Shown one piece after another: positions 17,875-49,439 of a DNA stretch of 64,000 nt. The stretch comes from Labilithrix sp. (GTDB taxonomy: Bacteria > Myxococcota_A > Polyangia > Polyangiales > Polyangiaceae): positions 1,448,108-1,512,107 of the forward strand of contig JAHCIY010000002.1 in NCBI GenBank assembly GCA_026128965.1, in the 5' to 3' direction. A program made the translations under genes and the position numbers. The stretch's first letter is position 1, and each line of letters begins with the position of its first letter. The notes under the pieces were generated by a model. It had not been told where the DNA came from and ran no database searches. It worked only from the letters and a program-made list of their open reading frames with translations.

Positions 17875-17970
17875 GTGTCTGGGGTGGGGGTGTCGGGGGC
17901 GAAGCCCCCGACGTTGAAAGAGTGTCTGGGGTGGGGGTGTCGGGGGCGAAGCCCCCGACGTTGAAAGCCT
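17875..17970 (-). terminator. Two tandem GC-rich UUCG-tetraloop hairpins immediately after the receiver-gene stop (candidate factor-independent terminator / RNA-stability element)
   Basis: Two ~48-bp direct copies. On the minus-strand RNA each reads GUCGGGGGC-UUCG-GCCCCCGAC followed by ACCCCCACCCC (C-rich, no U-tract). They lie directly after the stop of the 17969..18370 gene. Confidence 0.4.
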
Positions 17971-18370
17971 AGCGAAGCGCTTTGGGAGCACGCCGTGGCG
18001 TGGCGACGAGCGTGCGGATGCGGGCGGCGAGGTCGGAGCCGGTGACGCTCTTCGAGATGTAGCCGTCGGCTTCGACCTCCTTCGCGAGGTTCCTGAGGAT
18101 CGTCTCGTCCGAGGAGCTGTGGAGGACGAAGCGCGTCATCGGGGGCGCGCTCTTCCGCGCGATGAAGAGGATGCGATCGCCGGAGAGGGCAGGGATGTCG
18201 ACGTCCATCAGGACGACGTGCGGCACGAACGAGCGGACGATGTTCGTGACGCCGATCGGGCTCTCGCAGGTCATCACGTCGAACCCCTCGCCCTTGAGGG
18301 TGCGTTCGAGGAGCTCGAGCTGCATGGCGTCGTCGTCGACGACGAGGACGCGGAGGGAGTCTTCAGCCAT
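17969..18370 (-). CDS. Single-domain response regulator (CheY-like receiver)
   Basis: LRVLVVDDD...VLMDVDIP...KS receiver signature. Overlaps the upstream hybrid kinase by 8 nt (operon). Confidence 0.85.
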   Translation of the reverse strand: MAEDSLRVLVVDDDAMQLELLERTLKGEGFDVMTCESPIGVTNIVRSFVPHVVLMDVDIPALSGDRILFIARKSAPPMTRFVLHSSSDETILRNLAKEVEADGYISKSVTGSDLAARIRTLVATPRRAPKALR

Positions 18371-20480: not shown

Positions 20481-20493
20481 GGCTCGTCCCTGT

Positions 20494-29175: not shown

Positions 29176-29814
29176 GTGGGCGTGATCGGGCGGCGATCGA
29201 ATCGGCCTCCTGCGCTCGTGGAGCCCACGGTGTGGAGCGCCGAGGCGCCGCGCGTGACGGCGGCGTGGATCTCGCGGCCGCGCGTCGGCGAGGTGGAGAG
29301 CGGCGACGATGTGATCGTGCTGGAGCGTCGCGACGCCGTGTTCCTCGTCGTCGTCGATGCGCTCGGGCATGGGCCGAACGCGGCGCGGGTCGCGCGGGCG
29401 GCGACGGAGTGGGTGCGCTCGACGACGGACGCGGCGACGGTGCTGGACATCTCCAATGGCCTCCATCGCGCGCTTCAGGGATCGCGCGGCGCGGCGGCGC
29501 TCGTGGTCGCGGCGTCCGCCGCCGGCGTGGAGGCATGCGGGGTCGGCAACGTCGATCTCCGCTCCGTCAGCGGGCGGCTCCCGTTCGTCCTTACGCCAGG
29601 TGTGCTCGGGGTGCGGCTGCGGAGCCCGCGATCGTGCCGCGTCGATGCGCCGGTCGCGGAGCGGTTCGTCATGTTTAGCGACGGAATCTCGGGGCGGTTC
29701 GACCTGAAAGCGCTCGCCGCCATGTCGCCCGGCGAAGCGGCGACGCACGTCTTCGCGAAGCATCGTCACTCGCACGACGACTCGACCGTCCTCGTCGCCG
29801 ACGTGGCGCTCTGA
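29176..29814 (+). CDS. PP2C/SpoIIE-type serine phosphatase (RsbX-like, no sensor domain)
   Basis: GDDVIVLERRDAVFLVVVDALGHGPNAA and the distal HDDSTVLVADV metal-binding Asp motifs typical of SpoIIE/RsbU-family phosphatases. The true start may lie downstream of 29176. Confidence 0.75.
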   Translation: MGVIGRRSNRPPALVEPTVWSAEAPRVTAAWISRPRVGEVESGDDVIVLERRDAVFLVVVDALGHGPNAARVARAATEWVRSTTDAATVLDISNGLHRALQGSRGAAALVVAASAAGVEACGVGNVDLRSVSGRLPFVLTPGVLGVRLRSPRSCRVDAPVAERFVMFSDGISGRFDLKALAAMSPGEAATHVFAKHRHSHDDSTVLVADVAL

Positions 29815-29841
29815 TTCGATCCGAGCAGAGGAGCGGAGAAG

Positions 29842-29909
29842 CCGAGCATGACCGCGAGCCGAGCATGACCGCGAGCCGAGCATGACCGCGAGCCGAGCAT
29901 GACCGCGCC
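29842..29909 (+). repeat. 17-bp x4 perfect tandem repeat (gccgagcatgaccgcga), each copy carrying an ATG; the last ATG is the start of the downstream gene
   Basis: ATGs at 29848, 29865, 29882 and 29899, exactly 17 nt apart. The first three are followed by an in-frame TGA (MTASRA*). The fourth opens the 157-aa ORF. Confidence 0.8.
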
Positions 29910-30372
29910 GCTGCCTGTCGCTTGCACCGTCGCCGACTTCGACGCCGTGCTCACCGCGCGCGCGCACGTGCGCTCGTTCGCGGGGGCGCTCGGGTTCGAT
30001 CGCGAGGTCGTGGAGGAGCTCGTCGTCGTCGTGTCGGAGCTCGCCTCGAACATCGTGAAGTACGGGCGGCGCGGTCGCATCGAGCTCACCGCGATCGATC
30101 GGCCGGAGGAAGGGATGCGCGGGATCGCGATCGCGGCCGAGGACGAGACCGCGCCCTTCGACCTCGCGGGGAGCCTCCGCGACGGCTACGACGCGCGCGG
30201 CAAGCTCGATCCCGCGAGCGTCTACGGCCGCGGCGGCATCGGCGCCGGGCTCGGCGCGGTCGCGCGCTTCAGCGACGGGCTCGATCTCGTCCCCCTCGCC
30301 GGCGGAGGAAAGCGCATCGTAGCGCGCCGCCTGCTCGGCCGGCCACGCCGCGGCTCGTCGCCGTCGTTCTGA
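29899..30372 (+). CDS. Anti-sigma-factor-type Ser/Thr protein kinase (HATPase_c_2; RsbW/RsbT/SpoIIAB-like)
   Basis: VVVVSELASNIVKYG (N-box-like E..NA..Y) and a Gly-rich ATP lid (GRGGIGAGLG). 157 aa. Confidence 0.8.
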   Translation: MTAPLPVACTVADFDAVLTARAHVRSFAGALGFDREVVEELVVVVSELASNIVKYGRRGRIELTAIDRPEEGMRGIAIAAEDETAPFDLAGSLRDGYDARGKLDPASVYGRGGIGAGLGAVARFSDGLDLVPLAGGGKRIVARRLLGRPRRGSSPSF

Positions 30373-30700
30373 AGCGGTCGCGCCGTCGCCGAAGGTGGCT
30401 GCAAGTTCGTCATCGCTCGGCCGACGGCGTCGCGGCTCGTAGCGCGCCGCCTGCTCAGCCGGCCAAGCCACGCGTCGTTCCGAAGCGGTGGCATCGCTCG
30501 TCGCGCTGCCGGTGCGGCCGCCGGCGGCTCGTCGCCATCGTCTGAAGGCGCGCCCCCGCCGCGTCGCGCGCCGCCGCCCGTCGCCTGCTCGGTACCGTCC
30601 GCGGCTCGTCGCGCTTGCTCGTCGGCTGCCGCTCGTCGCTGTAGTTGAAGCGGGTGCGTCGCGGCTCGTCGCGCGTCGTTCTGGAAGCGGTCGCGTCGCG
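30316..30700. repeat. Direct repeats duplicating the last ~55 bp of the upstream kinase gene, plus further partial copies
   Basis: gtagcgcgccgcctgctcggccggccacgccgcggctcgtcgccgtcgttctga (gene 3' end, 30316-30372) recurs at ~30437-30492 with few changes. Shorter ggcggctcgtcgc...gtcgttctg(a/g)aagcggtcgcg copies run to ~30700. Confidence 0.65.
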
Positions 30701-30727
30701 GCTTGTCGGCGATGGCGCGGGCTTGGG

Positions 30728-31369
30728 TCAGTCGTCGTCGGGGGAGAAGTAGCGGGTGATGTAGCGCTGGAGGGCGGTGCGCATCGTGCGGTGGGTGAGG
30801 ACGCCGCTGAGGTCGACGCCCATGTGGATGATGGTTTGCGCGATGGCCGGGTTGATGCCGGTGAGGAGGCACTCGGCGCCGAGGAGGCGGACCGCGCGTG
30901 CCATGCGGAGGAAGTGATCGGCGGTTCCGGTGTCCATGACCTGGATGCCGGTGATGTCGATGATCGCGCAGTCCGCTTTTTTCTCGACGATCGCGCTGAG
31001 GAGCGCCTCCGTCATCTCGGCGCTGCGGGTGCTGTCCAGCACGCCCACGACCGGGAGACAGAGGACGCCGGCCCAGACCTCGATGATCGGGGTCGACAGC
31101 TCGCGGATCGCCGCGCGCTGGATCTCGATCGTCGCGAGCTTCTCCTCGAGCTCCTTCTGGTACGTCGCGCTCCGCTCCTGCTCCTTCGCGAGCGAGCCGA
31201 TCATCTGGTTGATGCCCTCGTAGAGCGTCGAGAGCGGGTGGTTCTCGGGCAGGTTGCTCTTGAGGCGCGTCGAGTAATCACCGCTTCCCACGTCCGCGAC
31301 GACGATGAGGATGTCAGCGATTCGCTCGAGCATCAGCTCCGACAAGTTCTGGTCGACCGCCTCCGGCAT
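30728..31369 (-). CDS. STAS-domain protein with ~95-aa N-terminal coiled-coil extension (RsbR-like stressosome/partner-switching component)
   Basis: C-terminal STAS (SpoIIAA-like) fold: IIEVWAGVLCLPVVGVLDSTRSAEMTEALL....ADCAIIDITGIQVMDTGTADHFLR...LLGAECLLTGINPAIAQ. AAGGA 9 nt upstream of the ATG at 31369. Confidence 0.8.
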   Translation of the reverse strand: MPEAVDQNLSELMLERIADILIVVADVGSGDYSTRLKSNLPENHPLSTLYEGINQMIGSLAKEQERSATYQKELEEKLATIEIQRAAIRELSTPIIEVWAGVLCLPVVGVLDSTRSAEMTEALLSAIVEKKADCAIIDITGIQVMDTGTADHFLRMARAVRLLGAECLLTGINPAIAQTIIHMGVDLSGVLTHRTMRTALQRYITRYFSPDDD

Positions 31370-31437
31370 TCGTCAGGTCCTTTGCGTCCCGCGCACGATG
31401 GCACGGCATTTCGTGGAAGCAAACTATTCTCGGTAAG

Positions 31438-31872
31438 TCAGCGCGTCTCGCGCGGCGTTCGCGGCCGCGGCCGCTTGTTGGGGCCGCCCTTGGGCGCGTG
31501 CCCGTCGAGGCGGCCGATCCCGAGCGACTTGAACGCCGCCTCGAGCGTGAGCGCCGTCCGGACCACGCCCATGTCTATCCCCATCGTTTGGAGGGTGATC
31601 GCGACTTGCGCGTTCATCCCACAAATGATGCTGTCCGCGCCCATCAGCCGCGCGGAGGCGGCGAGGCGCGAGAGGACGGCGCAGAGGTGGCTGTCGACCA
31701 TCCAGATACCCGTGAGATCGATGATTAACCCTTCCGCCCCGGTATCCCGGATGGTGTCGAGCACCTGATCTACCAGCCGCTCGGCGATGTGGTCGCTCAC
31801 GTCCCCCTGGAGCGGGACGAGCACTTGGTTCCAGAGGTGGATCACCGGGAGGCGATCGAGGCTGTCCGTCAT
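31438..31872 (-). CDS. Single STAS-domain protein (RsbS/anti-sigma-factor-antagonist-like)
   Basis: Start at the internal ATG (MTDSLDRLPVIHLW). STAS signature VIHLWNQVLVPLQGDVSDHIAERL....LIIDLTGIWMVDSHLCAVLSRLA...GADSIICGMNAQVAITL. The longer track ORF upstream is Arg-rich and not protein-like. Confidence 0.8.
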   Translation of the reverse strand: MTDSLDRLPVIHLWNQVLVPLQGDVSDHIAERLVDQVLDTIRDTGAEGLIIDLTGIWMVDSHLCAVLSRLAASARLMGADSIICGMNAQVAITLQTMGIDMGVVRTALTLEAAFKSLGIGRLDGHAPKGGPNKRPRPRTPRETR

Positions 31873-31929
31873 CGCGGCCGAGATTCGCACGAGACGCCGT
31901 GTCCGTCGAGCCTCGGCGCTACATCTGTT

Positions 31930-32235
31930 ATGGGTGATTTCATGGAAATGCGGGAAAGCTTTCGCGCGCCCTTTCTGGAGATGGCGTGGCAACGCCACCG
32001 TCGCATCGCCCAGCTCCTGAGCGAGGCCGGCGGGGAGAGCACGGAGCTCCGCTCCGCGGCGTCGGAGCTGCATTGCCTCTCGGGCGAGGCGAGCATGCTC
32101 GCCTTCGACGGCGTGGCCGACGTCGCGCGCGACGCGGAGGCGGCGGCGCGCAAGGGGGACCGCGTGCGGCTCCGCAACCTCGTCGAGGAGCTGCGCTCGG
32201 AGATCGAGGCCGTCGCCGAGGAGCGCGCGCCGTGA
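31930..32235 (+). CDS. Hpt (histidine phosphotransfer) domain protein
   Basis: Internal ATG at 31930 (MGDFMEMRESF). Phosphoacceptor-like helix ELHCLSGEASMLAFDGVA (H.LKGSA...G pattern). Its stop overlaps the GTG start of the downstream CheB gene. Confidence 0.6.
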   Translation: MGDFMEMRESFRAPFLEMAWQRHRRIAQLLSEAGGESTELRSAASELHCLSGEASMLAFDGVADVARDAEAAARKGDRVRLRNLVEELRSEIEAVAEERAP

Positions 32236-33332
32236 CGATCCGCGTCGTCGTCGTCGACGACTCGTCGATCTCGCGGATGGTCCTCCGCCGCATCCTCGAG
32301 GCGGACGGCGACATCCAGGTCGTCGGGGAGGCGACGAACGGCTTCGAGGCGCTCCCGAAGATCCTCGAGCACAAGCCGAACCTCGTCACGATGGACATCG
32401 ACATGCCGGGCCCGAGCGGGCTCGAGACGATCGGCCGCGTCATGGGGACGAGCCCGGTGCCGATCCTCGTCGTGACCGCCGAGCGCCTCGGACCCGACAG
32501 CGACGTCGGCTTCCGCGCGATCCAGTCCGGCGCGCTCGACTTCATGGCGAAGCCGTCGATCGGCGACGAAGAGAGCATGAAGATGCTGCGCCAGCACGTC
32601 CGCGTCCTCGCCGACGTGCCGGTGTTCCTCCACATGGAAGAGCGGCACGACGCGTCGCGCACGATGCGCGCGGGCCCGATCGAAGAGCCGCCGCCGTTCT
32701 CGCTCATCGCGATCGCGGGCGGCACCGGCGCGCCGAAGTCGGTCGCGACGATCCTCGAGGCGATCCCGCCGGGAATCTCCGCGCCGATCGTGATCGTGCA
32801 GCAGATGCCGGCGAAGTTCGGGGCCGCGTTCGTGAAGTACCTCCAGGGCGCGACCGCGCTCCGCGTGCGCACCGTCTCGGCGACGCCGCACGACTGCATG
32901 CCGGGTGAGGTCATCGTCGGCGAGCCGGGAGCGCACGTGTACTTCCCGCGGCGCGGCGTCGTCGTCTCGCGCGAGGGCGCGCCGTACGCGGGGGCGCTGC
33001 CGTCGATGACGGTCATGTTCCGCTCGATCGCGGAGACCTACGGAAAAGACGCGGTCGGCGTGCTCCTCTCGGGAACGGGGACCGACGGCCTCGAGGGCCT
33101 CGCCGCGATGCGCGAGGCCGGCGCGCTCACGATCGCGGAGAGCCCCGACTCCGCGCCCGTCGCCGAGCTCCCCGCCGCCGCGCTCGCCTCGGGCGCCGCC
33201 ACGCGCGCGCTCCAGGCGCAGATGATCGCGAGCTCGCTCGTGAGCGCGATGACCGACGTCGGCAAGAAGACGACCGCGCCGCCGAGCAGCGACCCCGCGT
33301 TCGCCGCGGAGCTGGACGTGCGAATGCGCTGA
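32232..33332 (+). CDS. cheB: Chemotaxis-type protein-glutamate methylesterase/deamidase CheB (REC + CheB_methylest)
   Basis: GTG at 32232 (VTIRVVVVDDSSISR). Receiver Asp region (VTMDIDMPGPSG), then catalytic domain with IVIVQQMP, GTGTDGLEG and S/H/D triad context. The first ~80 aa of the track ORF 31986..33332 fall in a different, non-protein-like region. Confidence 0.9.
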   Translation: MTIRVVVVDDSSISRMVLRRILEADGDIQVVGEATNGFEALPKILEHKPNLVTMDIDMPGPSGLETIGRVMGTSPVPILVVTAERLGPDSDVGFRAIQSGALDFMAKPSIGDEESMKMLRQHVRVLADVPVFLHMEERHDASRTMRAGPIEEPPPFSLIAIAGGTGAPKSVATILEAIPPGISAPIVIVQQMPAKFGAAFVKYLQGATALRVRTVSATPHDCMPGEVIVGEPGAHVYFPRRGVVVSREGAPYAGALPSMTVMFRSIAETYGKDAVGVLLSGTGTDGLEGLAAMREAGALTIAESPDSAPVAELPAAALASGAATRALQAQMIASSLVSAMTDVGKKTTAPPSSDPAFAAELDVRMR

Positions 33333-33413
33333 CCGCGCCGCCGGTGCGGCCCGGCCTCGAAGGATGCTGCGCCGTGGGAGCGCGGGGCGGAGGCGCCGAG
33401 CAGCGGCCTCGCG

Positions 33414-33779
33414 CTATCCGGCCTCCGAGAAGAACGCGGCGAGGCGGGAGGCGAGGGTGGCGCCGTCCTTGGGGACCGAGCCGCGGGCGCCGATGCGGGA
33501 CGCGAGGGCGTCCACCTCGCAGGGGGGGCGATCCGAGAAGAGGACCACCGGGAGGCGCGCCGCGTGGCGGGAGACCACCTCGACCAGCGCGTCGTCCGTG
33601 ACGCCGGGGTAGCTCGCGTCGACGAGGAGCAAGTCGGGGGTTCCGCCGGCGACCGCATCATCGATTTTTCCAGGGTCTTCGACGCTGGCGACCTCGTGGC
33701 CCGCCGCGGCGAGGGCGTGGGCGACGACGGCCCGGACGAGGGCGCTGTCGTCGACGAGGAGGATCTTCCGGGGAGACAC
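33414..33779 (-). CDS. Single-domain response regulator (CheY-like)
   Basis: Start at GTG (VSPRKILLVDDSALVRAV...). DLLLVDASYPGV...LPVVLFSD receiver signature. Upstream in-frame sequence would overlap the divergent 33859 gene and is not protein-like. Confidence 0.7.
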   Translation of the reverse strand: MSPRKILLVDDSALVRAVVAHALAAAGHEVASVEDPGKIDDAVAGGTPDLLLVDASYPGVTDDALVEVVSRHAARLPVVLFSDRPPCEVDALASRIGARGSVPKDGATLASRLAAFFSEAG

Positions 33780-33858
33780 GAAGCGTGACGATAGTCGAAA
33801 TCTTGGATTTGGTTTTCGTGAGAATAGTGCAAAATCGGACCACCGCTGAGGCGGCGAG

Positions 33859-34260
33859 ATGGGGCCCGAGACGATCGACATCGCGATCAAGATGGAGGGG
33901 GACATCGTGCGCGCCCGCGGGGCGGGGCGCGAGATGTGTCGCGAGCTCGGGCTCAGCGAGATCAACCAGGTCAAGGTCGCGACCGCGATCTCCGAGCTCG
34001 CGCGCAACATCTTCCACTACGCGCAGACCGGGAACATCCACCTCCGGAAGCTCGCGTCGCCGCGCCCCGGCATCGAGATCGTCGCGACCGACCGCGGCCC
34101 CGGCATCTCCGATCTGAAGCTCGTCCTGAGCGGCACGTACCAGTCGCGCACCGGGATGGGGAAGGGCCTCCTCGGCGCCCGCCGGCTCGTCGACTTCTTC
34201 GAGGTCGACACCGGCCCGGAGAAGGGCACGCGCGTCGTCCTCCGCAAGTACGCGCGGTGA
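33859..34260 (+). CDS. Anti-sigma-factor-type Ser/Thr kinase (RsbT-like switch kinase)
   Basis: KVATAISELARNIFHYA plus Gly-rich GMGKGLLGARRL ATP-lid. 133 aa. Followed 4 nt later by the GAF-PP2C gene. Confidence 0.8.
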   Translation: MGPETIDIAIKMEGDIVRARGAGREMCRELGLSEINQVKVATAISELARNIFHYAQTGNIHLRKLASPRPGIEIVATDRGPGISDLKLVLSGTYQSRTGMGKGLLGARRLVDFFEVDTGPEKGTRVVLRKYAR

Positions 34261-34264
34261 CGGC

Positions 34265-35560
34265 GTGAACGGGGAGATCCAACAACACCTCGACCGCCTG
34301 CGCGCCTTCGGCGGGCTCCGCCGCGAGCTGCGCGTGCTCGAGGACCTGGAAGGGATCGCGCGCGTGGCCCTCCGCTTCGCGGTCGACGTGCTCGGCTGCG
34401 CGCGCGCCGCGCTGTATTGCGCCGAGAAAGAGGACGGCGACTACGTCCGCCTCGCCGTCACCGACGAGACGCGCGCGACGCCGGCGTCGATCGAGCGCTC
34501 GTCCCCGCTCGGACAGGCGCTCGCGGACGCGGTGTGGACGACCGCCGATCCGATCGTGACCGCGTTCGGGGAAGGGGAGCCGATGGCCGCCGCCGTCGCG
34601 CTCCGCGGCTCGGCGGGGCAGCCGCTCGGCGCGCTCCTCGTCGCCGGCGCGCGCCTCGACGAGGAGCTCCTCGGCGAGCTCGCCTTCGACGTCGAGAGCG
34701 TCCTCGCGGTGCGCCTCATCGCGCAGCTCCGCGCGGAGGAGCTCGCGGTGCTCGAGATCCAGGAGCGCGAGCTCGTCGGCCTCTTGCGCGACGTCGAGGC
34801 GCGCGACGAGATCATCCAGCGCGATCTCGAAGAAGCGCGCCGCTTCCAGCGCCAGATGCTGGGGACGCCGCCGCGGATCGCGGGGGCGGCGGTCGAGGTC
34901 GTGTACACGCCGCTCGGCCTCGTCGGCGGCGACCTCTACGCCGTGTCGGCGGAGGACCGTCGCGTGCGCATGTTCGTCGCCGACGCGACGGGGCACGGCG
35001 TCCGCGCGTCGCTCACGACGATGTTCATCAAGAGCGGCTACGAGGCGGTCCGCCGCTCGGCGCCGGATCCGGCCTCGCTCCTCGCCGCGCTGAACGAGAC
35101 GATCGCCCACACCTACCGCAGCGCGGAGATGCTCTTCTCCGCGGTGTGCGTCGATCTCGACCTCGACACCGGGCGCCTGTGGATCGCGTCCGCCGCGCAC
35201 CCGCCCGCATGCATCGTCCGCGCCGGCGCGCCGGTCCTCCTCGAGGCCGGCGGCGCGTTCCTCGGGCTCCGGCCCGGCATGAAGTTTGGCCTCCACGAGG
35301 ATCGGATCGCGCCGGGAGATGGGGTCTACCTCTATACCGATGGATTCGTCGAAGCTCGAAAGGGGCAGGAGCAGTTCGGCGACGAGCGCTTCCAGGCCGC
35401 GATCGTGGACGCGCACGTCCGCGGAGAGAAGGCCGGCGCCGCGGTGCTGGCCGCGGTGACGGAGTTCCTCGCCGGTGGTGCGCTCGAGGACGACGGCACC
35501 TTCGTCGGCCTGCGTTTCGGGGTGGAGGACGACAGTGTGCCGAGCGTCCGGAGCGTCTGA
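34265..35560 (+). CDS. GAF-domain PP2C/SpoIIE-type serine phosphatase (RsbU/RsbP-like)
   Basis: GTG start. N-terminal GAF-like region, then GGDLYAV...RMFVADATGHGVRASL...YLYTDGFVEAR...DD.T phosphatase motifs. Confidence 0.85.
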   Translation: MNGEIQQHLDRLRAFGGLRRELRVLEDLEGIARVALRFAVDVLGCARAALYCAEKEDGDYVRLAVTDETRATPASIERSSPLGQALADAVWTTADPIVTAFGEGEPMAAAVALRGSAGQPLGALLVAGARLDEELLGELAFDVESVLAVRLIAQLRAEELAVLEIQERELVGLLRDVEARDEIIQRDLEEARRFQRQMLGTPPRIAGAAVEVVYTPLGLVGGDLYAVSAEDRRVRMFVADATGHGVRASLTTMFIKSGYEAVRRSAPDPASLLAALNETIAHTYRSAEMLFSAVCVDLDLDTGRLWIASAAHPPACIVRAGAPVLLEAGGAFLGLRPGMKFGLHEDRIAPGDGVYLYTDGFVEARKGQEQFGDERFQAAIVDAHVRGEKAGAAVLAAVTEFLAGGALEDDGTFVGLRFGVEDDSVPSVRSV

Positions 35561-35636
35561 GGTGAAATCGTCGAACCAGACGGATTCGTGCGATCGTGTT
35601 GCAGCGGCCGACACGCCGAGTAAGATCGCTGGGCCG

Positions 35637-36155
35637 ATGTCGACGCACGACGATCAGTCGCTCTTCGAGCTGCGCTTCCGGCCGACGGTGGCCCTCGCGT
35701 CGACGGTGCGTCGCTTCGTCGCGGAGTTCTACCGCGAGCTCCTCTCCGACGCCGACGTGAGCCACCGCCTCGCGATGGCGACGCACGAGATGCTCGAGAA
35801 CGCGGTCCACTACTCGATCGATCAGCGCTCCGAGCTCGTCATCTCCGCGCGCCGCGTCGAGGGCGAGCTCGTCGTCGCGATCCGGACGAAGAACCGCGCG
35901 ACGACGGAGCGCCTCGAGAAGGTGCGCCTCCACCTCGACGAGGTGCTCGGCGCGTCCGACGCCTCGGCGATGTACACCCGGCTCATGCATCGCGCCGCGA
36001 AGCGCACCGACGGCGGCAGCGGCCTCGGGCTCGGTCGCATCCGCGCGGAGGCCGACCTCGCGCTCTCGTACGCGATCGACGGCGACACGATCGCCGTCAC
36101 CGCCGAAGGGCATTTCCCACGCGCAGAAGGCGCGCTGCTGACAGGGGCCCCATGA
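35637..36155 (+). CDS. HATPase_c_2-like protein kinase (partner-switch kinase, SiaB/RsbW-like; tentative)
   Basis: Internal ATG at 35637 (MSTHDDQSLF). LAMATHEMLENAVHYS resembles the E..NA..H N-box of anti-sigma kinases. Gly-rich DGGSGLGLGRIR follows. Its stop overlaps the next start (ATGA). Confidence 0.6.
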   Translation: MSTHDDQSLFELRFRPTVALASTVRRFVAEFYRELLSDADVSHRLAMATHEMLENAVHYSIDQRSELVISARRVEGELVVAIRTKNRATTERLEKVRLHLDEVLGASDASAMYTRLMHRAAKRTDGGSGLGLGRIRAEADLALSYAIDGDTIAVTAEGHFPRAEGALLTGAP

Positions 36156-36547
36156 TCGACATCCCGAACATCGACGCGAACGATCTCCGTGCGGCCCCGA
36201 CCTTCACCGACGGGCAGCTCTCGGTCGTGTTCGCGGGCAGCGCCGACTCGCGCTCGCAGGACGCGATCCAGGAGCTGCTCCGTCGCGTCCACGCCGAGGC
36301 GATGCGCCTCCAGCTGCCCGAGGTCGCGATCGACTTCCGCGACTGCGACTTCGTGAACTCGTCGTGCTTCAAGGCGTTCGTCGTCTGGCTCGAGCAGATC
36401 CAGGAGCTCGACGAGAACCAGCAGTACCGCCTCCGCTTCTTCTCCGACGACACGAAGGCCTGGCAGAGGCGGAGCCTCCAAGCGCTCTCGTGCTTTGCGA
36501 TCGAGCTCGTTCATATCGAGTCGAAAGCCCGTCGTGTCGGCAGCTGA
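36152..36547 (+). CDS. Small acidic protein resembling STAS/DUF1987 (SiaC-like) phosphorylatable partner-switch proteins (tentative)
   Basis: 131 aa. Pattern LSVVFAGSADSRS...EVAIDFRDCDFVNSSCFKAFVVWLEQIQ recalls the phospho-Ser/Thr loop plus beta-strand of antagonist-type folds. Family call is from memory only. Confidence 0.5.
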   Translation: MIDIPNIDANDLRAAPTFTDGQLSVVFAGSADSRSQDAIQELLRRVHAEAMRLQLPEVAIDFRDCDFVNSSCFKAFVVWLEQIQELDENQQYRLRFFSDDTKAWQRRSLQALSCFAIELVHIESKARRVGS

Positions 36548-38030
36548 AGCGCTCCCGAACGACATCGTCGCTCAGTTTCGAGCGACGACGGTGGAGCGCC
36601 TCGGACGCATCGAAGAGGCGTGGGGCTCGCTCGCGCACGGCGTCGCGACGGCGGAGAACGAGTCGGAGCTGTTCCACGACGTCCACACGCTGAAGGGCGA
36701 GGCCCGCCTCGTCGGGTTCGCCGACGTCGTCCTGATCATCCAGCGGCTCGAGGACCTCCTCGTCGCCGCGCGCCGCCGCCGCTACCGCGTGAACGAGGAC
36801 GTCGACGTGCTCGTCACGATGGCGATCCAGTTCGCGCGCATGCTCGTGCGGAAGCGCCCCGGCGCGTCGAACGGCGGGATCGACATCGGCGGCTTCCTCA
36901 AGCAGATCGAGGACGTCCTCGCGGAGTGGCCGCGCCAGTCGGAGGGCCCGGAGTCGAACGGCGCCGCGTCGATGCGCCCGGCCGACGGCGGCAAGATCAC
37001 GGTCGCGATCCGGCAGCGCCTCGGCGGCGCGGCGACCCAGATCTTCCTCGAGATGCTCGTCGCGTCCGACCGGATCCGCCTCCGCCGCGCGTGGGACACG
37101 CTCGTCGGCGAGCTCGCCGGCCTCGACGCGGTGCCGCTCATGCCCGTCGCTCGCCACCACGCGGCGTCGGCGAAGGAGCTCGCGGCCGAGCTGGGGAAGG
37201 AGGTCGACGTCATCGTCGAGGGCCCCGATCTGCGCGTCGGCGTCGAGGTCCTCGACACGATCCACACGTCGCTCCTCCACTGCCTGCGCAACGCGGTCGA
37301 TCACGGGATCGAGCCGCCGAGCGCCCGCGTCGCCGCGGGCAAGCCGCGCCGCGGCAACGTCTGCGTGAAGGTCCGCGCCGAGACCGACAGCGTCGCGGTG
37401 ATCGTGCAGGACGACGGCGGCGGCGTCGACCTCGAGTCGATCCGCGATCGCGCGGCGAAGCTCGGGCTCCTCTCGGCCGAAGACGCGCTCGCCGCGCCGG
37501 AGGCGACGCTCCTCGATCTGACGTTCGCGGCCGGCTTCTCCGTGCGCGAGTCCGCGGGCACGGTGTCGGGCCGCGGCATCGGGCTCGACGCCGTGCGCGC
37601 AGGGATCGAGCGGCTCGGCGGGCGGATAGGGATCGCGTCCACGCGCGGCGTGGGGGCGATCGTGTCGTTCGAGGTCCCGAGCACGCGGCGCGTCGTCGAG
37701 GTGCATCGCCTCCCGTCGACGCAGGCCGGCCTCTCCTTCGCGATCCCGACGACGTGGACGGTGCGGAGCGGCAAGAGCGATTCGTACCTCGATCCAGTCA
37801 CCGTGCTCGCGCTCCGGCGCAACGAGCAGACCACGCCGACGGTGGGTCAGATCGTCGTCACGCGCGACGGCGAGGAGCACGGCCTCGTCATCGGCGGCCC
37901 CGTCTCGCGCGTCGCCGCGACGCGCATCGCGCCGACGTCGCCGGACGAGCCGCTCGAGGTCGTCGCGTTCGGCGGCGAGCACCTCCTGCTCCTCCGCCCC
38001 GAGGTGTTCTTCACCGCGCGCGGCCCCTGA
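36528..38030 (+). CDS. CheA-like histidine kinase (Hpt - dimerisation - HATPase - CheW-like), no P2 domain
   Basis: Likely GTG start near 36528-36531, overlapping the end of the 36152..36547 gene. N-terminal Hpt H-box HDVHTLKGEARLVGF; CheA-type N-box HCLRNAVDHGIEP; G-boxes DDGGGVD, GRGIGLDAV; C-terminal ~110-aa CheW-like domain. Confidence 0.85.
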   Translation, partial: PVVSAAEALPNDIVAQFRATTVERLGRIEEAWGSLAHGVATAENESELFHDVHTLKGEARLVGFADVVLIIQRLEDLLVAARRRRYRVNEDVDVLVTMAIQFARMLVRKRPGASNGGIDIGGFLKQIEDVLAEWPRQSEGPESNGAASMRPADGGKITVAIRQRLGGAATQIFLEMLVASDRIRLRRAWDTLVGELAGLDAVPLMPVARHHAASAKELAAELGKEVDVIVEGPDLRVGVEVLDTIHTSLLHCLRNAVDHGIEPPSARVAAGKPRRGNVCVKVRAETDSVAVIVQDDGGGVDLESIRDRAAKLGLLSAEDALAAPEATLLDLTFAAGFSVRESAGTVSGRGIGLDAVRAGIERLGGRIGIASTRGVGAIVSFEVPSTRRVVEVHRLPSTQAGLSFAIPTTWTVRSGKSDSYLDPVTVLALRRNEQTTPTVGQIVVTRDGEEHGLVIGGPVSRVAATRIAPTSPDEPLEVVAFGGEHLLLLRPEVFFTARGP

Positions 38031-38035
38031 TCGGA

Positions 38036-38404
38036 TCACGCCTCGCCGAGGACGCTCTTCACCTTCGCGAGCAGCGCGTCGGGTCCGGCCTTCTTCGTGA
38101 CCCAGCCGTCGACCTCGGCTTCGGCCGCGCGCCGGGCGAGCTCCTCCTCGTCGAGGCTCGAGAGGAGGAGGATCGGCGACGATACTTTGTACGCGCCGCG
38201 GAGCGCGCTCGCGAGGTCGTCGCCGAAGACCTCCGGCATCTGGACGTCGACGATGATGAGGTCGGGCGCGGCGCGCCGGCGCTCCGCTTCGAACGCGGCG
38301 ACCGTCGTCGCGGTCGCGACCTCGTAGCCGGCGCGCTCGAGCACGGCGCGCGTGAAGTCGAGCACGAGCGCGCTGTCGTCGATGAGGAGGATCCTACGCG
38401 GCAC
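38036..38404 (-). CDS. CheY-like single-domain response regulator
   Basis: RILLIDDSALV...LIIVDVQMPEV...SPILLLSS...WVTKK receiver motifs. Confidence 0.85.
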   Translation of the reverse strand: MPRRILLIDDSALVLDFTRAVLERAGYEVATATTVAAFEAERRRAAPDLIIVDVQMPEVFGDDLASALRGAYKVSSPILLLSSLDEEELARRAAEAEVDGWVTKKAGPDALLAKVKSVLGEA

Positions 38405-39143
38405 CGTATTCGCTCCACGGCGGCGCGCCGATCAGGAACTCGAGCGTGCAGAAGAGGTCCTTCAGCGCGATCGGCTTGGCGAGGAAGAGGTCGGCGCCGG
38501 CGTCGAGCATCGCCTGGCGCGCCGCCCTTCCGGCGCCGCTCATCCCGACGATGAAGGCGAGCCCGAGCTGGGTGTCGGCGCGGAGGCGCGAGACGAAGTC
38601 GGTGCCGGAGCTGGCCTTCAGCGTGTGATCGACGAGGAGGAGATCGAGGTCGGGGCGCGCGAGGCGCCACGCCTCCTCCGCCGTCGCCGCCTGCACGAGG
38701 CGGAGGCGGGCGGAGCGTTGCTTGAAGTAGCGCTCGAACGCGTACGCGAACGTGTCGCGAATGAGCTGGTTGTCCTCGACGAGCAAGACCGAGAGCTCGC
38801 GGTTCGCGAGCGCGCCGGGGACCGGGCGGATGCGCCGCGCGACCTCACGCGCGCGCTCTCGCTGCCGCTCGTCGGCGAAGTCGAAGGTCGCGACGAAGCC
38901 GGGCGGCGAGCCGGGACCGTCGGAGACGCGGATCTGCGTGACGGCGGCGGAGAGGCGGAGCGGGCGGAAGATGCGCGGGAACGAGAGCTCGACGCTCACG
39001 CGATGATCGAGAGGCGGGAGAAGCTCGGTGATCACGAAAACCGACTCTTCCGTCATCTCGATGGCACACGTCGTCTCCGCGAAGCCGTCGCGGAAGAGCT
39101 CGGCACGCAAGATCGCGCTGCGCTGTGCGCTCACGGTCGTCAC
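38394..39143 (-). CDS. Response regulator with N-terminal PilZ-like domain (tentative) and C-terminal receiver
   Basis: C-terminal REC (LSVLLVEDNQ...LLLVDHTLK...IVGMSG...AKP). N-terminal ~120 aa have an R(x)4R element and DGPGSPPG loop suggestive of a degenerate PilZ. Overlaps the downstream CheY-like gene by 11 nt. Confidence 0.6.
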   Translation of the reverse strand: MTTVSAQRSAILRAELFRDGFAETTCAIEMTEESVFVITELLPPLDHRVSVELSFPRIFRPLRLSAAVTQIRVSDGPGSPPGFVATFDFADERQRERAREVARRIRPVPGALANRELSVLLVEDNQLIRDTFAYAFERYFKQRSARLRLVQAATAEEAWRLARPDLDLLLVDHTLKASSGTDFVSRLRADTQLGLAFIVGMSGAGRAARQAMLDAGADLFLAKPIALKDLFCTLEFLIGAPPWSEYGAA

Positions 39144-39227: not shown

Positions 39228-39482
39228 TCACTCCTCGGTGATGACGGCGTCGTGCGCGGCGGTGATCTGCGCAGCGACCGTCTTCCGCACCACTTCTTCG
39301 ATCGCGACGTCGACGTTCGTGACCTCGATCACGCCGCGGCCGTCGCTCTCGAGCCGCGCCTGCACGCCGCTCTCCTTCGGCAGGCCGAGCGCGCGGAGGT
39401 TCTCCTCGGTCCGCGCCTGGAGCGTGACCATCTCCGGCGCGCCGAAGGTCCCGCGGAACGTGAAGACGATGCTCTTCCTCAT
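39228..39482 (-). CDS. Small hypothetical protein (~85 aa)
   Basis: Internal ATG (MRKSIVFTFRGTFGAPE...). No recognisable motifs. Confidence 0.35.
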   Translation of the reverse strand: MRKSIVFTFRGTFGAPEMVTLQARTEENLRALGLPKESGVQARLESDGRGVIEVTNVDVAIEEVVRKTVAAQITAAHDAVITEE

Positions 39483-39574
39483 CCGCTGAATAGAGCGCGA
39501 TCCACGCGGCTCTTCAATGCTGCGCGAGGGCGCAGGATTGACTCCGCTCACCTGGGCTGTCATCTTCGTCGTCC

Positions 39575-41094: not shown

Positions 41095-42441
41095 TCAGCC
41101 GTAGTGGCTCGCCGGCGCCGGCGCCGGTGCCTTCGGCGAGCGCGGGATCTCGAACCAGAACGTCGCGCCGCGGCCGACCTCCGACTCGACGCCGGCGCGA
41201 CCGCCGTGCGCCTCCGCGAGGCGGCGCACCGTCGCGAGGCCGAGGCCGACGCCGGGCTCCTTCGTGCCCGGCGCGCGGACGTAGGGATCGAAGACGCGGG
41301 CGTGGAGCTCGCGCGCGAGGCCGGGACCGTTGTCGGCGACCTCGACGCGGACGGCGGAGCCGCGCTCGCGGGCGCGGATCTCGATGCGAGGCTCCTCTCC
41401 GTTGCCGTTGCCGTTGCCGTTGCCGATGTACTTGATCGCGTTCCGCGCGAGGTTCGCGATGAGGCTCGTGAGGACGCCCGGATCGCACGCCGCGACGAGG
41501 TCGGCGTCTTGCTTCGTCGTCAGCGCGATGCGCTTCTCCGCGACGGTGGGCTCGAGCTCGGCGACGAGGTCGGCGGTGATGCGCGCGACGTCGGCGCGCG
41601 CCCCGACGGCGGGCCGTCCCCCCGCGCGCGCGAACTCGAGGAGGCCGTTCACGAGGCGCTGGATCCGCTCGAGCGACGAGGTCCCGCGCTCGACGACGCG
41701 CGCGCGTTGCTTCGGATCTTCGGTCCGGCCGAGGATGTCGAGGGCGAAGCCGATCGCGCCGAGCGGGCTCAGGATGTCGTGCGCGACGCGGCCGGCGAAG
41801 CCTTCGAGCTCCGCCGCGCGCTCCTCTTGCAGCTGCCGCCGCCGCTCCGCGATCTCGCGATCGGCGCGGACGAAGCGCTGCACGAGGTACGCGCCGAGGA
41901 GCGCGAGGAGCGCGCACACGACGTCGAGCGCGAGGGCGACGCGGCTCGACTGCGCGCGGAGGTGCCGGATGCGGAGCGCCGACTCGCGCGTTCGCACCGC
42001 GCTCGCCTCGAGCGCCTCCGTGATCGCGTCCGACACGTCGCCGACGATCGGCAGGACGTCGTCCACGTCCGCGTCGTCGCGCTCGAGGCGCCGCAACATG
42101 CCGTCGAGCTCGTCCTTGGAGCGCCGCACGTCGCGCCAGCTCTCCTCCTCCCCGGGCAAGAGCGGGCGCGTGAGGTAGCCGTCGAGCGAGCGATCGAGGA
42201 CGTGGCGCGCGTCGACGAGCGCCGCGTTCTCCACTGGCTCGCGGCGGAGGACGAGGAGGAGGTGCCGCAGATCGCTGCGTGCGGCGGCGAGGTGCTCGAT
42301 GCCGGGCGCGGAGTCGTCGGCGATCTCGAGCGCCGCGTCGTCGATCGCGCGCAATTCCCAGTGCACGAACGCGGTCGCGGTGACGAACGAGAGGACCACG
42401 CCCGCGAAGATCGCGGGCAGGACTACGCGCGAGGTCGGCAT
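41095..42441 (-). CDS. Membrane sensor histidine kinase (HisKA + HATPase_c)
   Basis: Start at the internal ATG (MPTSRVVLPAIFAGVVLSF, TM1); second TM ~aa 190. H-box FAGRVAHDILSPLGAI; N-box LIANLARNAIKY; G-boxes DNGPGL, GVGLGLA. Contains a (GN)4-5 insertion encoded by (gttgcc)4. Confidence 0.85.
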   Translation of the reverse strand: MPTSRVVLPAIFAGVVLSFVTATAFVHWELRAIDDAALEIADDSAPGIEHLAAARSDLRHLLLVLRREPVENAALVDARHVLDRSLDGYLTRPLLPGEEESWRDVRRSKDELDGMLRRLERDDADVDDVLPIVGDVSDAITEALEASAVRTRESALRIRHLRAQSSRVALALDVVCALLALLGAYLVQRFVRADREIAERRRQLQEERAAELEGFAGRVAHDILSPLGAIGFALDILGRTEDPKQRARVVERGTSSLERIQRLVNGLLEFARAGGRPAVGARADVARITADLVAELEPTVAEKRIALTTKQDADLVAACDPGVLTSLIANLARNAIKYIGNGNGNGNGEEPRIEIRARERGSAVRVEVADNGPGLARELHARVFDPYVRAPGTKEPGVGLGLATVRRLAEAHGGRAGVESEVGRGATFWFEIPRSPKAPAPAPASHYG

Positions 42442-42532
42442 GCGTGACACCTCCGGCTGCGGGACTGTGCCCCGACAGCGAAGGCCTGCCATTCATTCCC
42501 GACGAATCGTGGTCGAGGTCGATCGTCGACTC

Positions 42533-47685: not shown

Positions 47686-48040
47686 TCACTCCGCCGAGGA
47701 GCCGCCGCCTTCGTCGAGGCCGCCGGCGCCGACGCGGAGCGTGACGAGCTCGGCGAGGATCGCGGCCACGTCGACGGGCGCGCCGGGTTCGTCGTAGCGG
47801 AGCTCGTTCGTCTCCTCGCGGCCGGCGCGGAAGACGACGACGTCCATCGCGTCGCTCCGGAGCGCCTTCGCCTCGATGAAGTCGCTCATCGTGCGGGTCC
47901 GCTTCCCGTTCACCGAGAGGAGGACGTCGCCGTAGCGGATCCCGGCGCGCGCGGCGGGCGTGCCTCCGAGCGCGCCCAGTACCGGGATCCCCTCGAGCGC
48001 CTTGGCGAGGGCGAAGAGCGACGACTTCGCGATCAGACGT
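47686..48040 (-). CDS. PDZ-domain protein (start codon unresolved)
   Basis: GIPVLGALGGTPAARAGIRYGDVLLSVNGKRTRTMSDFIEA is a PDZ carboxylate-binding loop plus core. The upstream part of the track ORF is Arg-rich junk that overlaps the REC-DUF4388 gene. No canonical start is visible right after that gene's stop. Confidence 0.4.
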
Positions 48041-49146
48041 GGAGCTCCTTCTCGACGTCGGCGAGCGCGATGCGCGCCATCGCGAGGTTCGCGCGCTGGC
48101 GATCGAGCGCGACGTAGAAGAAGAGCGTCGGGCGGGAGCGGAGAGGGCGGATGAGGTGGTACTGCTTGCCGAGGGTGATGAGGATGTCCTCGATTCCGTC
48201 CTTCAGCGCGAGGTTGCTCATCGTCTTTCGCTTCGCGCGGACGACCTCGGTGTTGCCGGCGGCCGCTATTTCGAGGTTCAGGTTCCCTCCGCCTTCGTGC
48301 CCGAGGAGCATGCCGCTCTCGGAGTCGACGATCGCCGCTCCCACGAATCCGTCGACCTGATTGAGCTTGTGGAGGCTTTCTTTGATGTTCATGGACAGAT
48401 CCCTCGCTGCTGCTGATGCGTTGTTGAAGTTGGGTGTCGCGGAATCGAAATGGGTATTGCCCGCGTTCAGCCGCTCGTCGGCCCGGCGCGCGCTCTCCAG
48501 CAGGAGCGCCTGCCACGCCGAGCGCACGGACCGACCGCTCGTCGTCGCGCCGGTCCGCATCGAGAACTCCCCCGCGCTCCAGGTCATGATCTCGTAGAAG
48601 GCCTCGTCACCGACGGCGTGCGGCGTCTGCGCGTGGAGGACGACCCCTTGCGAGAAGAACACGTGCCCCTCCAGCGTCTTGTGGCGGACCGTCAGCTGAC
48701 CGGTGGCGCTCGAGTGGACGTAGAGCTGCACGATGTCCGGGAGCGTCTGCACGAGGACCGCTCCGGAGAAGCCCGACGACGGCGGAGAGAGAGCCTCGTC
48801 GATCTGCTGAAGGAGCAGATCGAGCTTGAACGGCTTCTCCAGGAAGCCGGTGAACGGACCGGAGCGGAGGCTCGTGATGTCGACCGACTTGAAGGCGGTC
48901 ATGACGATGACGGGGAGCTCGGGATGGACGCTGCGCGCAGCGAAGACGAGATCGATGCCGCTCAAGCCCGGCATGTGGACGTCGGTGATGAGGAGATCGA
49001 CCGCTCCTTCGAGGAGCGTGAGCGCCGCCGCGCCGTCGTTCGCCGACTCGATTCGGTGGCGGGGGTACGCGCGCGCGAGGCGGCTCGAGAGCGATCGAGT
49101 GAGCGCCTCCTCGTCGTCGACGAGCACGATCCGACGCGCGGTCATC
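48033..49146 (-). CDS. Response regulator with DUF4388 (PATAN) and C-terminal roadblock/LC7-like domains
   Basis: Start at the internal ATG (MTARRIVLVDDEE...LLITDVHMPGLSG...VIVMTAF...EKP = REC). Then LVQTLPDIVQLYVHSSATGQLTV (DUF4388 signature). The C-terminus resembles MglB/roadblock (VGAAIVDSESGMLLGHEG...LFFYVALD). Confidence 0.7.
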
Positions 49147-49439
49147 GGCGCGCCCTGCTGCAGCGCACATGCCGCCGGCGCAAGCCCGCGTCTTCGCGAA
49201 ATCCGGGCTCCGAACGGGGCGCGACCCGTCCGGCGCTCCGGACGCCACCGTCCGGAGGGCCGGACACCGGCGAGCGAACGCGCGCGCAAAACGAGGAGCT
49301 CTCCGCGGCATGCCGCTTGCGACTTCGGATCGGCTGGCGCGAAGCGACCAAGCGCCGATCACCGAAGGAGAGCCGACATGCCCCATGAGCCCCATCACGT
49401 GTTCGAGCCGCGCGCGGACGACCCTCTCGGCGGGACGTC

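Follow-up and report, generated by a model that had tools for sequence, protein, structure and literature searches.

A conserved myxobacterial gene island in which a sigma-B-like partner-switching cascade probably ends in a receptor-less CheA-class histidine kinase

We analysed a 64-kb window (64,000 nucleotides) of the Labilithrix sp. contig JAHCIY010000002.1 and found that positions 29176-39143 hold an island of 14 signalling genes, g01-g14, which very probably form one system. On balance, we favour the reading that these genes encode a multi-tier cascade resembling the sigma-B cascade of Bacillus subtilis, with a CheA-class histidine kinase, the product of g12, in the place of the sigma factor. 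The island is a real and conserved variant of partner switching that, apparently, has not been described. CheA-class kinases are thought to be controlled by arrays of chemoreceptors and CheW; the known targets of partner switches are sigma factors, diguanylate cyclases and a small number of other enzymes.

A preliminary description of the island had read it as two partner-switching modules that feed a Che-type phosphorelay without receptors. The genes are present, and a conserved unit without receptor genes was recovered; several of the domain labels failed. The two modules are better read as successive tiers of one sigma-B-like cascade, namely an RsbR/S/T/X-type hub, a pair of RsbT-like and RsbU-like proteins, and a pair of RsbW-like and RsbV-like proteins, and this three-tier reading replaces the former one.

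Results

The signalling genes form one conserved unit

The G+C content of the window is about 70%, so that most listed open reading frames (ORFs) are spurious. Genes were therefore called by the G+C content of third codon positions (GC3), combined with the rule that GC1 exceeds GC2 and with open frames, and were then searched with hidden Markov models (HMMs) of Pfam and NCBIfam. The 14 genes are arranged as six alternating transcription units (Table 1). As noted before, genes are joined by overlapping or nearly overlapping stops and starts: GTGA between g05 and g06 (Hpt and CheB-like), ATGA between g10 and g11, overlaps of 14 nucleotides (nt) for g11/g12 and 11 nt for g14/g13, and a spacing of 4 nt between g08 and g09. 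A scan of 28-40 kb for promoters and terminators gave nothing over shuffled expectation.

To name related loci and proteins, we use labels of the form L### and P####, respectively. The triad g10-g11-g12 is contiguous and co-directional in L001, L002, L003 and L082-L086 (g12 identity 37-79%), the exception being the rearranged L004. It is usually accompanied by a g13-type receiver (REC) gene and a SpoIIE phosphatase gene, and often by a gene for a g14-type protein. As an independent sample, 80 metagenome loci were fetched with the g11 profile, and counts were limited to loci with enough flanking sequence. Here g10 lies directly upstream of g11 in 62 of the 65 loci with room upstream, and a CheA-like gene directly downstream of g11 in half of those with room downstream (27/54). 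A longer list of genes, for RsbR, RsbS, the small PP2C, the 157-residue kinase, Hpt, pseudo-CheB, REC and the 133-residue kinase beside SpoIIE, recurs in the same order in L082 (79% identity), L087 and L090, and rearranged in L083, L097 and JGI contig 3300047160 (kinase identity 49-58%); the flanking genes differ among these loci. The adjacency of the triad, the g11-profile sample and the survival of the extended list through rearrangement lead us to regard the genes as one conserved unit, and the earlier claim that partner-switching and His-Asp genes are linked is borne out. Additionally, a scan of a genome collection with the CheA-like alignment, keyed on the universal N-box and G2-box peptides of CheA, returned almost only canonical CheA loci, the relatives being L002-L004.

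The output end of the unit varies among lineages. In at least 15 of the loci without a CheA-like gene, g10-g11 is flanked by a divergent GGDEF protein, with a PP2C gene further upstream, an arrangement that follows the logic of SiaABCD. The presence of a GGDEF cyclase beside g10-g11 in such sister lineages indicates that the output is swappable. The sister loci (L124:7743-9392(-), L124:10394-11197(+) and L116:1890-3458(+)) encode a GGDEF protein of about 550 residues and a conserved protein of about 268 residues with no Pfam match, and some CheA-less sister loci also carry an ammonium transporter gene beside g10-g11. In Labilithrix luteola (CP012333, L167), g10-g11 lies amid genes for two PAS-STAS proteins, small kinases, small PP2Cs and a pair of kinase and SpoIIE, with no CheA-like gene within 10 kb, which links the stressosome tier to the g10-g11 switch whatever the output. 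These comparisons suggest that the switch (PP2C, g10 and g11) stays constant while its outputs can be exchanged, and that the Labilithrix family has a front end of stressosome type. The minimal ancestral core, wide in Myxococcota, would consist of a sensor PP2C, g10, g11, the CheA-like kinase and at least one REC; the stressosome tier and the Hpt/pseudo-CheB pair appear to be additions in the Labilithrix clade.

The island parallels the sigma-B cascade

As in the B. subtilis sigma-B cascade, the island encodes STAS proteins of RsbR and RsbS type, a candidate RsbT-like kinase of 133 residues, an RsbX-like PP2C, and a larger PP2C beside the RsbT-like gene. The next tier is present as well, in the form of a kinase-like GHKL protein and a STAS protein of a single domain that carries the phospho-Ser motif. 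Specifically, the operon g08-g09-g10-g11-g12 parallels rsbT-rsbU-rsbV-rsbW-sigB, with the kinase at the position of sigB. The two systems differ in that the terminal gene here encodes a CheA-class histidine kinase, the order of the W-like and V-like genes is reversed, and their products come from the divergent slr1658/slr1659 families. Furthermore, the PP2C here has a GAF-like N-terminal domain instead of RsbU_N, there are two RsbT-type paralogues, and the hub genes are split over convergent units. No sigma-factor gene, the target in classical partner switching, was found in the island or the related loci, where a CheA-class kinase or a GGDEF protein stands instead.

The terminal kinase belongs to the CheA class

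The g12 protein comprises P1 (Hpt), a linker helix, a P3-like hairpin, P4 and an all-beta C-terminal domain of about 110 residues, and P2 is absent. It thus has the P1 Hpt domain, the P3 dimerisation element and the CheA-class P4 that define CheA; its top Foldseek matches are all CheA, and the peptides HTLKG, NAVDHGIE and SGRGIGLDA are invariant in its family. The preliminary description had given this kinase a CheW domain of its own. The CheA class stands, but CheW/P5 homology was not detectable in g12, by Pfam or in comparison with a control set of 33 P5 domains from canonical CheA loci. The linker between P1 and the P3-like hairpin (residues 102-203, positions 36834-37139), for which Pfam gave no match, contains a family-invariant GGID..GF motif (G116, I117, D118, G121, F122) in a predicted helix. 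This motif is a candidate docking site for switch proteins or receivers.

The ORFs with coding signal in the full 64 kb gave no match to the Pfam families of chemoreceptors (methyl-accepting chemotaxis proteins, MCPs; MCPsignal), CheW or CheR, and these families are likewise missing from the precomputed Pfam annotation of the related loci with gene calls, in agreement with the preliminary description. Neither of the two outcomes named there as speaking against the island, failed STAS or HATPase_c_2 calls and MCP, cheW or cheR genes just outside it, was observed in the HMM searches and the 64-kb scan.

A divergent kinase-STAS pair precedes the kinase

The best named match of g10 is the NCBIfam slr1658 superfamily (NF047703; 43.6 bits, E=2.1e-11), and that of g11 is the slr1659 superfamily (NF047705; 30.1 bits, E=5e-7). 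Both scores are under the curated cutoff of 100 bits, and the two proteins are therefore treated as distant relatives of these families. In Pfam, g10 scores below the cutoffs of HATPase_c_2 (25.4 vs 27.4 bits) and DUF6272 (23.7 vs 26.6 bits), and the SiaB_fam_kinase model gives 13.9 bits (cutoff 85). The g10 family conserves an N box, HE(L/M)LENA, and a G2 box, GSGLGL, and has a conserved TxNR in place of the G1 box. Together with g02 and g08, this makes three small kinases where four with HATPase_c_2 had been proposed; the coding frames leave no space for a fourth.

For g11, Pfam gave no match, DUF1987 included. Its AlphaFold2 model (mean predicted local distance difference test score, pLDDT, 92.1) has the anti-sigma antagonists TM1442, RsfB, SpoIIAA and RsbV as top Foldseek matches, with SiaC lower in the list. 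A profile of 22 family sequences matches SpoIIAA (1th8_B, E=0.003), with FMNSSCF aligned on FMDSSGL. The motif F(M/V)NSSCFK is invariant in the family, as are S70 and S71 in the 22 sequences, and the alignment places Ser70 of g11 on the phosphorylated Ser58 of SpoIIAA. By fold and alignment, g11 therefore carries the phosphorylatable Ser at the start of helix 2 that is expected of a STAS antagonist, its phosphorylation being predicted. Of the earlier label DUF1987/STAS-like, the STAS fold holds on the model, Foldseek and profile evidence, and an assignment to DUF1987/SiaC was rejected in favour of a SpoIIAA-like STAS protein.

The g11 family comprises at least 1205 clusters at 50% identity. 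Proteins that fuse g10 and g11 also occur (P0222, P0252, P0276 and P0325). In another protein, P0336 (360 residues), a receiver domain and a PilZ-like segment (RRRSPPLR ... DITPSGAF) are fused to a g11-type STAS domain, which provides a physical link of REC/PilZ-type proteins to the switch protein.

Upper tiers resemble RsbT-RsbU and a stressosome

The g08 protein has intact N, G1 and G2 boxes, and a lead to its identity is 40% identity over 127 of 133 residues (E=2e-32) to a provisional B. subtilis RsbT reference sequence. A g08-type gene always adjoins the SpoIIE gene in the extended loci. Its neighbour g09 supplies the PP2C/SpoIIE phosphatase that classical partner switching requires. It had been called a GAF-PP2C; the phosphatase domain is clear, while GAF_3 (20.1 bits) and GAF (18.3 bits) stay sub-threshold in its N-terminal domain. 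In the distant relatives L001 and L084, which have reduced loci without the stressosome tier, the equivalent phosphatase is a dCache-HAMP-SpoIIE protein. The reduced core sits there among genes for di-haem cytochrome c peroxidase (CCP_MauG) and multihaem cytochromes, and there are hints of a redox or peroxide-related input in these lineages.

Among the hub genes, g01, g03 and g04 agree with the calls made earlier. The g01 protein is a small PP2C of RsbX type without a sensor domain. Its SpoIIE score is marginal (25.2 bits vs a cutoff of 25), and the match covers positions 3-191 of the 192 in the profile, with the motifs GDD, DALGHG, SDG and DDST in the translation and metal-binding motifs readable. 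Orthologues share 44% identity in L083 and 56% in L087/L090. The two STAS proteins were recovered as described, in an arrangement like RsbS and RsbR. Specifically, g03 combines an RsbR-subfamily C-terminal STAS domain with an N-terminal extension, and its PDB matches to the RsbR of the Vibrio vulnificus stressosome (7o0i_B, E=9.5e-30) and to Listeria RsbR (6qcm, E=1.7e-28) are both better than those to RsbS. Its co-directional neighbour g04, which starts at the ATG at 31872, is a single-domain STAS protein of RsbS type with 82% identity to its orthologue in L082 and 70% in L083; its NCBIfam matches to anti-sigma antagonist models are under their cutoffs. The second small kinase of putative RsbT type, g02, has a degenerate G1 box (EDETAPF), and its best match is again the provisional B. 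subtilis RsbT reference sequence (31% identity, E=4e-13), a lead only. The g02 gene runs on the same strand as the RsbS-RsbR genes in L087/L090, opposite to its orientation in the window, and it abuts g03 without a gap in L082, which suggests an inversion of g02 in the lineage of the window.

Several repeats lie around these genes. About 5.6 copies of a 28-nt unit, CGAGTGACGTGGGAGTGGGATGGGAAG, occupy 29013-29185, between an upstream stop (29031) and the assigned GTG of g01 (29176). Since this array fills the gap upstream of the GTG, the true start and promoter of g01 are uncertain. At 29840-29907, a perfect tandem repeat of four copies of a 17-nt unit, AGCCGAGCATGACCGCG (100% matches), overlaps the g02 ATG (29899), and every copy carries an ATG. 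Since 17 nt does not correspond to whole codons, gain or loss of copies would alter the 5' end of g02 or the site at which its translation starts. Five copies of a GTCGCGGCTCGTCGC-like motif, all on one strand, are clustered in the 356 nt that separate the convergent g02 and g03 (30347-30727), although over the whole window the motif is no more frequent than expected by chance.

The CheB-like protein is a predicted pseudo-esterase

Compared with Salmonella typhimurium CheB (1A2O), g06 has Ser164 replaced by Gly and His190 by Gln, and keeps Asp286 and the phospho-acceptor Asp of the REC domain. Among the island-type CheB-like proteins (window, L082, L083, L087, L090 and L092), the Ser is absent in 6/6 and the His in 5/6, whereas both are kept in all 41 canonical CheB proteins beside canonical CheA in control loci. 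The CheB-like domain is thus predicted from its sequence to be catalytically dead, so that the family part of the earlier "CheB methylesterase" stands and the enzymatic part does not. Because the protein has no catalytic Ser and His, the absence of MCP and CheR is expected and poses no paradox. Together with the missing CheW homology of g12, this largely resolves the puzzle of Che genes without receptors. The orthologues in the window (C-terminus at 33240-33332), L082 and L083 share a tail, KTTAPPS(S/E), after the esterase-like domain, which may be a docking peptide.

The stand-alone Hpt protein g05 (HCLSGEA motif) and the two CheY-like receivers, g07 and g13, were confirmed. In L083, g14, g13, the Hpt gene and the CheB-like gene form a single operon, which ties the Hpt/pseudo-CheB pair to the receivers of the kinase. 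A g13-type REC gene lies near the CheA-like gene in L001, L002, L004 and L082-L086, and g07 is always divergent from g08-g09, an adjacency kept in the rearranged L083 and L097. Of the PilZ-REC protein proposed for g14, the C-terminal receiver half holds; residues 1-118 gave no Pfam match even at E<=10, PilZ PF07238 included, which leaves the PilZ assignment without Pfam support. The TIGR02266 model scores 22.2 bits (cutoff 68.7), a weak PilZ match is seen in the L001 orthologue, and the motifs RxxxR and DxSxxG for binding cyclic di-GMP are not evident in the g14 sequence. Upstream of g14-g13, the small gene g15, whose membership is uncertain, has an orthologue with 48% identity at the same position in L082.

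Table 1 Features of the island (positions in the 64-kb window)
Gene	Position	Strand	Length (amino acids)	Assignment	Support
g01	29176-29814	+	212	Small sensor-less PP2C, RsbX-like	Pfam SpoIIE
g02	29899-30372	+	157	Small GHKL switch kinase, RsbT-type paralogue	Pfam HATPase_c_2 38 bits
g03	30728-31369	-	213	RsbR-type STAS protein with helical HAMP-like N-terminal extension	Pfam STAS 49.6 bits
g04	31438-31872	-	144	RsbS-type single-domain STAS protein	Pfam STAS 41.6 bits, whole protein covered
g05	31942-32235	+	about 97	Stand-alone Hpt protein	Pfam Hpt 31.4 bits; HCLSGEA motif
g06	32232-33332	+	366	REC and CheB-like domain, predicted pseudo-methylesterase	CheB_methylest 140.5 bits, REC 69.6 bits
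g07	33414-33779	-	about 121	Stand-alone REC	Pfam Response_reg 38 bits
g08	33859-34260	+	133	RsbT-like switch kinase	Pfam HATPase_c_2 36.9 bits, HATPase_c 33.2 bits
g09	34265-35560	+	431	PP2C phosphatase with GAF-like N-terminal domain (RsbU position)	Pfam SpoIIE 135.9 bits
g10	35637-36155	+	172	slr1658-type GHKL kinase-like protein (RsbW/SiaB position)	NCBIfam match below cutoff
g11	36152-36547	+	131	slr1659-type STAS-fold phosphoprotein candidate (RsbV/SpoIIAA position)	Fold and profile
g12	36534-38030	+	498	Receptor-less CheA-class histidine kinase	Pfam Hpt and HATPase_c
g13	38036-38404	-	122	CheY-like stand-alone receiver	Pfam Response_reg 75.5 bits
g14	38394-39143	-	249	Two-domain receiver, N-terminal PilZ-like(?) and C-terminal REC	REC 44.1 bits, residues 119-231
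g15	39228-39563	-	111	Small conserved protein upstream of g14-g13, membership uncertain	No Pfam match

The remainder of the 64 kb is occupied by unrelated genes, including those for a giant tetratricopeptide repeat (TPR) protein, an M16 peptidase, a Ser/Thr kinase, a hybrid kinase, a FIST protein, a ClC channel, a HisKA kinase, a sigma-54 activator, riboflavin genes and others. The giant is a single ORF of more than 3000 codons at 3-9209 that runs off the left window edge and consists almost entirely of TPR-type repeats. A stretch of about 1.5 kb at 26562-28020 has no convincing coding frame (low GC3), and inside it lies a tandem array (27351-27700, period 67/132 nt) with a GCGGATGGC core.

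Discussion

By analogy with known cascades, it seems probable that the signal flows from the stressosome-like hub to the RsbT-like kinase, the PP2C, the STAS/kinase switch, the CheA-like kinase and finally the receivers. Specifically, the g03/g04 hub would hold the RsbT-type kinases; g02 and/or g08 would phosphorylate the hub, and g01 would reset it. Released g08 would activate the neighbouring PP2C g09, which would dephosphorylate g11 at the invariant Ser70, while g10 would re-phosphorylate and/or bind g11. The phosphorylation state of g11 would then decide the activity of g12, in either of two ways: unphosphorylated g11 may bind g12 directly, as SiaC binds SiaD, or g11 may draw the inhibitor g10 away from g12, as RsbV frees sigma B from RsbW. 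Autophosphorylated on His52 of P1, g12 would pass phosphate to the receivers g13, g14 and g07 and to the REC domain of g06, with the Hpt protein g05 as a shuttle. The dead CheB-like domain of g06 would most likely serve as a phosphorylation-controlled binding module, possibly in feedback.

Several points weigh against this scheme. The direction of flow and the contact of g11 or g10 with g12 are proposed from gene context and by analogy with SiaABCD and RsbUVW. The RsbT-like identity of g08 is a lead from the provisional B. subtilis reference sequence, since PDB sequence searches with two small kinases gave no RsbT chain and no useful match. As RsbU_N is not detectable in g09, its activation by g08 is suggested by the adjacency of the two genes, and the kinase activity of g10 is uncertain because the canonical G1 box (DxGxG) is absent. 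The divergent position of g07 next to g08-g09 suits a His-Asp input into the phosphatase tier equally well. Coupling to the CheA-like kinase is not obligatory, since L. luteola and about half of the metagenome loci have no adjacent CheA-like gene. Finally, the search for MCP, CheW and CheR covered the 64-kb window, and such genes may lie elsewhere in the genome.

The opposite wiring would place the CheA-like kinase and the Hpt and REC proteins upstream and make the partner switch an output, with its target, a sigma factor or another protein, encoded elsewhere. We regard it as unlikely, though it has precedents in HptB-HsbR-HsbA, Shewanella Che1-CrsR-CrsA, B. cereus RsbK-RsbY and the stage-1 F7 clusters (PMC7184735, PMC4574943). 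Unlike HsbR, CrsR, RsbY and SypE, no phosphatase or switch kinase of the family carries a REC domain. The sensory domains, cytoplasmic and GAF-like here, extracytoplasmic in the dCache-HAMP proteins of L001/L084, sit on the PP2C, and the CheA-like kinase has no sensor or other input device. A gene for a sigma or anti-sigma target is missing from all the loci, and in sister loci g10-g11 is paired with a GGDEF enzyme, as is typical where an output stands. The island does hold REC domains in g06, g07, g13 and g14 and two Hpt domains, which would suit the opposite wiring, as would the constant divergent neighbourhood of g07 and g08-g09 and the joining of REC-PilZ to a g11-type STAS domain in P0336; the g07 pairing and the fusion argue for at least some feedback. 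Rather unlikely, as a joint claim, is an extended form of the cascade in which the RsbR/RsbS hub and the phospho-STAS switch replace the chemoreceptor/CheW array as input device of the CheA-class kinase, and the dead g06, retained as a binding module gated by phosphorylation, joins g05 and g07 in feeding the kinase output back to the hub or the phosphatase tier. Such feedback would be an adaptation loop analogous to that of CheB on MCPs, without methylation.

It is quite unlikely that g10-g11 and the CheA-like kinase are merely co-transcribed and act on separate targets, for instance g11 on a diguanylate cyclase or sigma factor elsewhere, their adjacency reflecting co-regulation. The g10-g11 loci with no CheA-like neighbour, about half of the total, and the L. 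luteola locus would fit such an arrangement, but where the kinase gene is present g10, g11 and g12 keep one order down to 37% identity, and their coding ends overlap; the neighbouring gene, moreover, encodes one or the other of two kinds of signalling enzyme, as expected of a regulated partner. A chance juxtaposition of an RsbRSTX module, an Hpt-CheB pair, a partner switch and an orphan kinase appears improbable. Myxobacterial genomes are dense in signalling genes, the island is split into six alternating units, and other, unrelated kinases and receivers lie in the window at 14468-20525, 41095-42492 and 48033-49358; against this, the same set of genes is found again in a changed order in L083, L097 and the JGI contig and in the same order in L082, L087 and L090, amid differing flanks. 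Finally, an ordinary Che pathway with its MCP, CheW and CheR encoded elsewhere is highly improbable: databases do name the kinase CheA, and a CheB-family protein and CheY-like receivers are present, but the CheB-like protein has neither nucleophile Ser nor catalytic His, the kinase has no detectable CheW/P5 homology, and the receptor, CheW and CheR families are missing from the 64 kb and from the annotated related loci.

Returning to the sigma-B-like cascade with a CheA-class output, several characterised systems share parts of it. In SiaABCD of Pseudomonas aeruginosa, the PP2C SiaA and the kinase SiaB act on the DUF1987 protein SiaC, which, when unphosphorylated, binds and activates the cyclase SiaD (PMC8457831). 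The island likewise combines a phosphatase, a kinase-like protein and a candidate STAS-like phosphoprotein with an adjacent signalling enzyme as the probable target instead of a sigma factor; a GGDEF enzyme stands beside g10-g11 in sister loci, and structure comparison lists SiaC as a neighbour of g11. The two systems resemble each other in function and structure only: neither does g11 belong to DUF1987 nor g10 to the SiaB family, the SiaA model gives 45.6 bits vs 700, and the island has no GGDEF protein, its output being a CheA-class kinase with receivers and its switch standing below a stressosome tier. Known partner switches that act on targets other than sigma factors include those for the diguanylate cyclases SiaD, HsbD and BgrR (PMC8457831) and for a glycosyltransferase (PMC13555669).

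The V. vulnificus stressosome is also an RsbR/S/T/X-type module in a Gram-negative bacterium, without SigB or RsbU_N and linked to His-Asp proteins, the two-component proteins VvD1/VvD2 (PMC9237108). The module there abuts a PAS sensor kinase, whereas here a PP2C and a STAS/kinase switch intervene and the kinase is CheA-class. In stage-1 F7 clusters (Vibrio cluster III, Shewanella Che1 and relatives of Pseudomonas Che2), Che genes occur with STAS and Ser-phosphatase genes, so that, as in the island, genes of cheA, cheY and cheB type stand together with those for anti-sigma antagonists and a serine phosphatase (PMC7184735). MCPs, CheW, CheR and CheD are all encoded in those clusters, their CheB is active, and their partner-switch genes are presumably on the output side, whereas the island has no receptor, CheW or CheR, a dead CheB-like protein and its sensors on the phosphatase. 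Recruitment of a chemotaxis-type modification enzyme into a partner-switching pathway is also known from B. cereus, where the CheR-like RsbM belongs to the sigma-B stress pathway with the hybrid kinase RsbK (PMC4574943). In RsbK-RsbY-RsbM, the signal flows from the kinase to a REC-PP2C, RsbV/W and SigB and the Che-type enzyme is active; the island has a pseudo-esterase and a CheA-class kinase.

Synechocystis Slr1658 and Slr1659 form an adjacent pair like g10 and g11, whose best named-family matches they represent, with scores under the cutoffs. For Slr1658, reports are limited to a mutant phenotype (impaired recovery from iron starvation, pgr5 de-repression), and the signalling chain in which it acts is described as unknown (PMC7555055, PMC6525291). 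An interaction network of Synechocystis groups Slr1657-Slr1660 with Sll0536 and Sll0537 (PMC4614683). In the full-text literature, a corpus with most subscription journals outside it, we found neither a partner switch that controls a CheA-class kinase nor a pseudo-CheB of this kind.

The conserved pseudo-CheB is a clean case in which a Che enzyme has been turned into a module without catalysis. Related loci occur in cultured relatives, those for the switch tiers in L. luteola and those for the kinase family in Chondromyces apiculatus, which makes tests with purified proteins possible. If the cascade reading is true, the island also provides a biochemical hypothesis for the uncharacterised and widespread slr1658/slr1659 families. 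A CheA-type kinase would then be gated by a phospho-STAS switch without a receptor array, which would be a new class of output for partner switching and a new class of input for CheA kinases. Should the hub also replace the receptor array, the island would stand for a "chemosensory-like" kind of pathway that is new as a class and independent of receptors, with His-Asp signalling gated by Ser/Thr phospho-switching.

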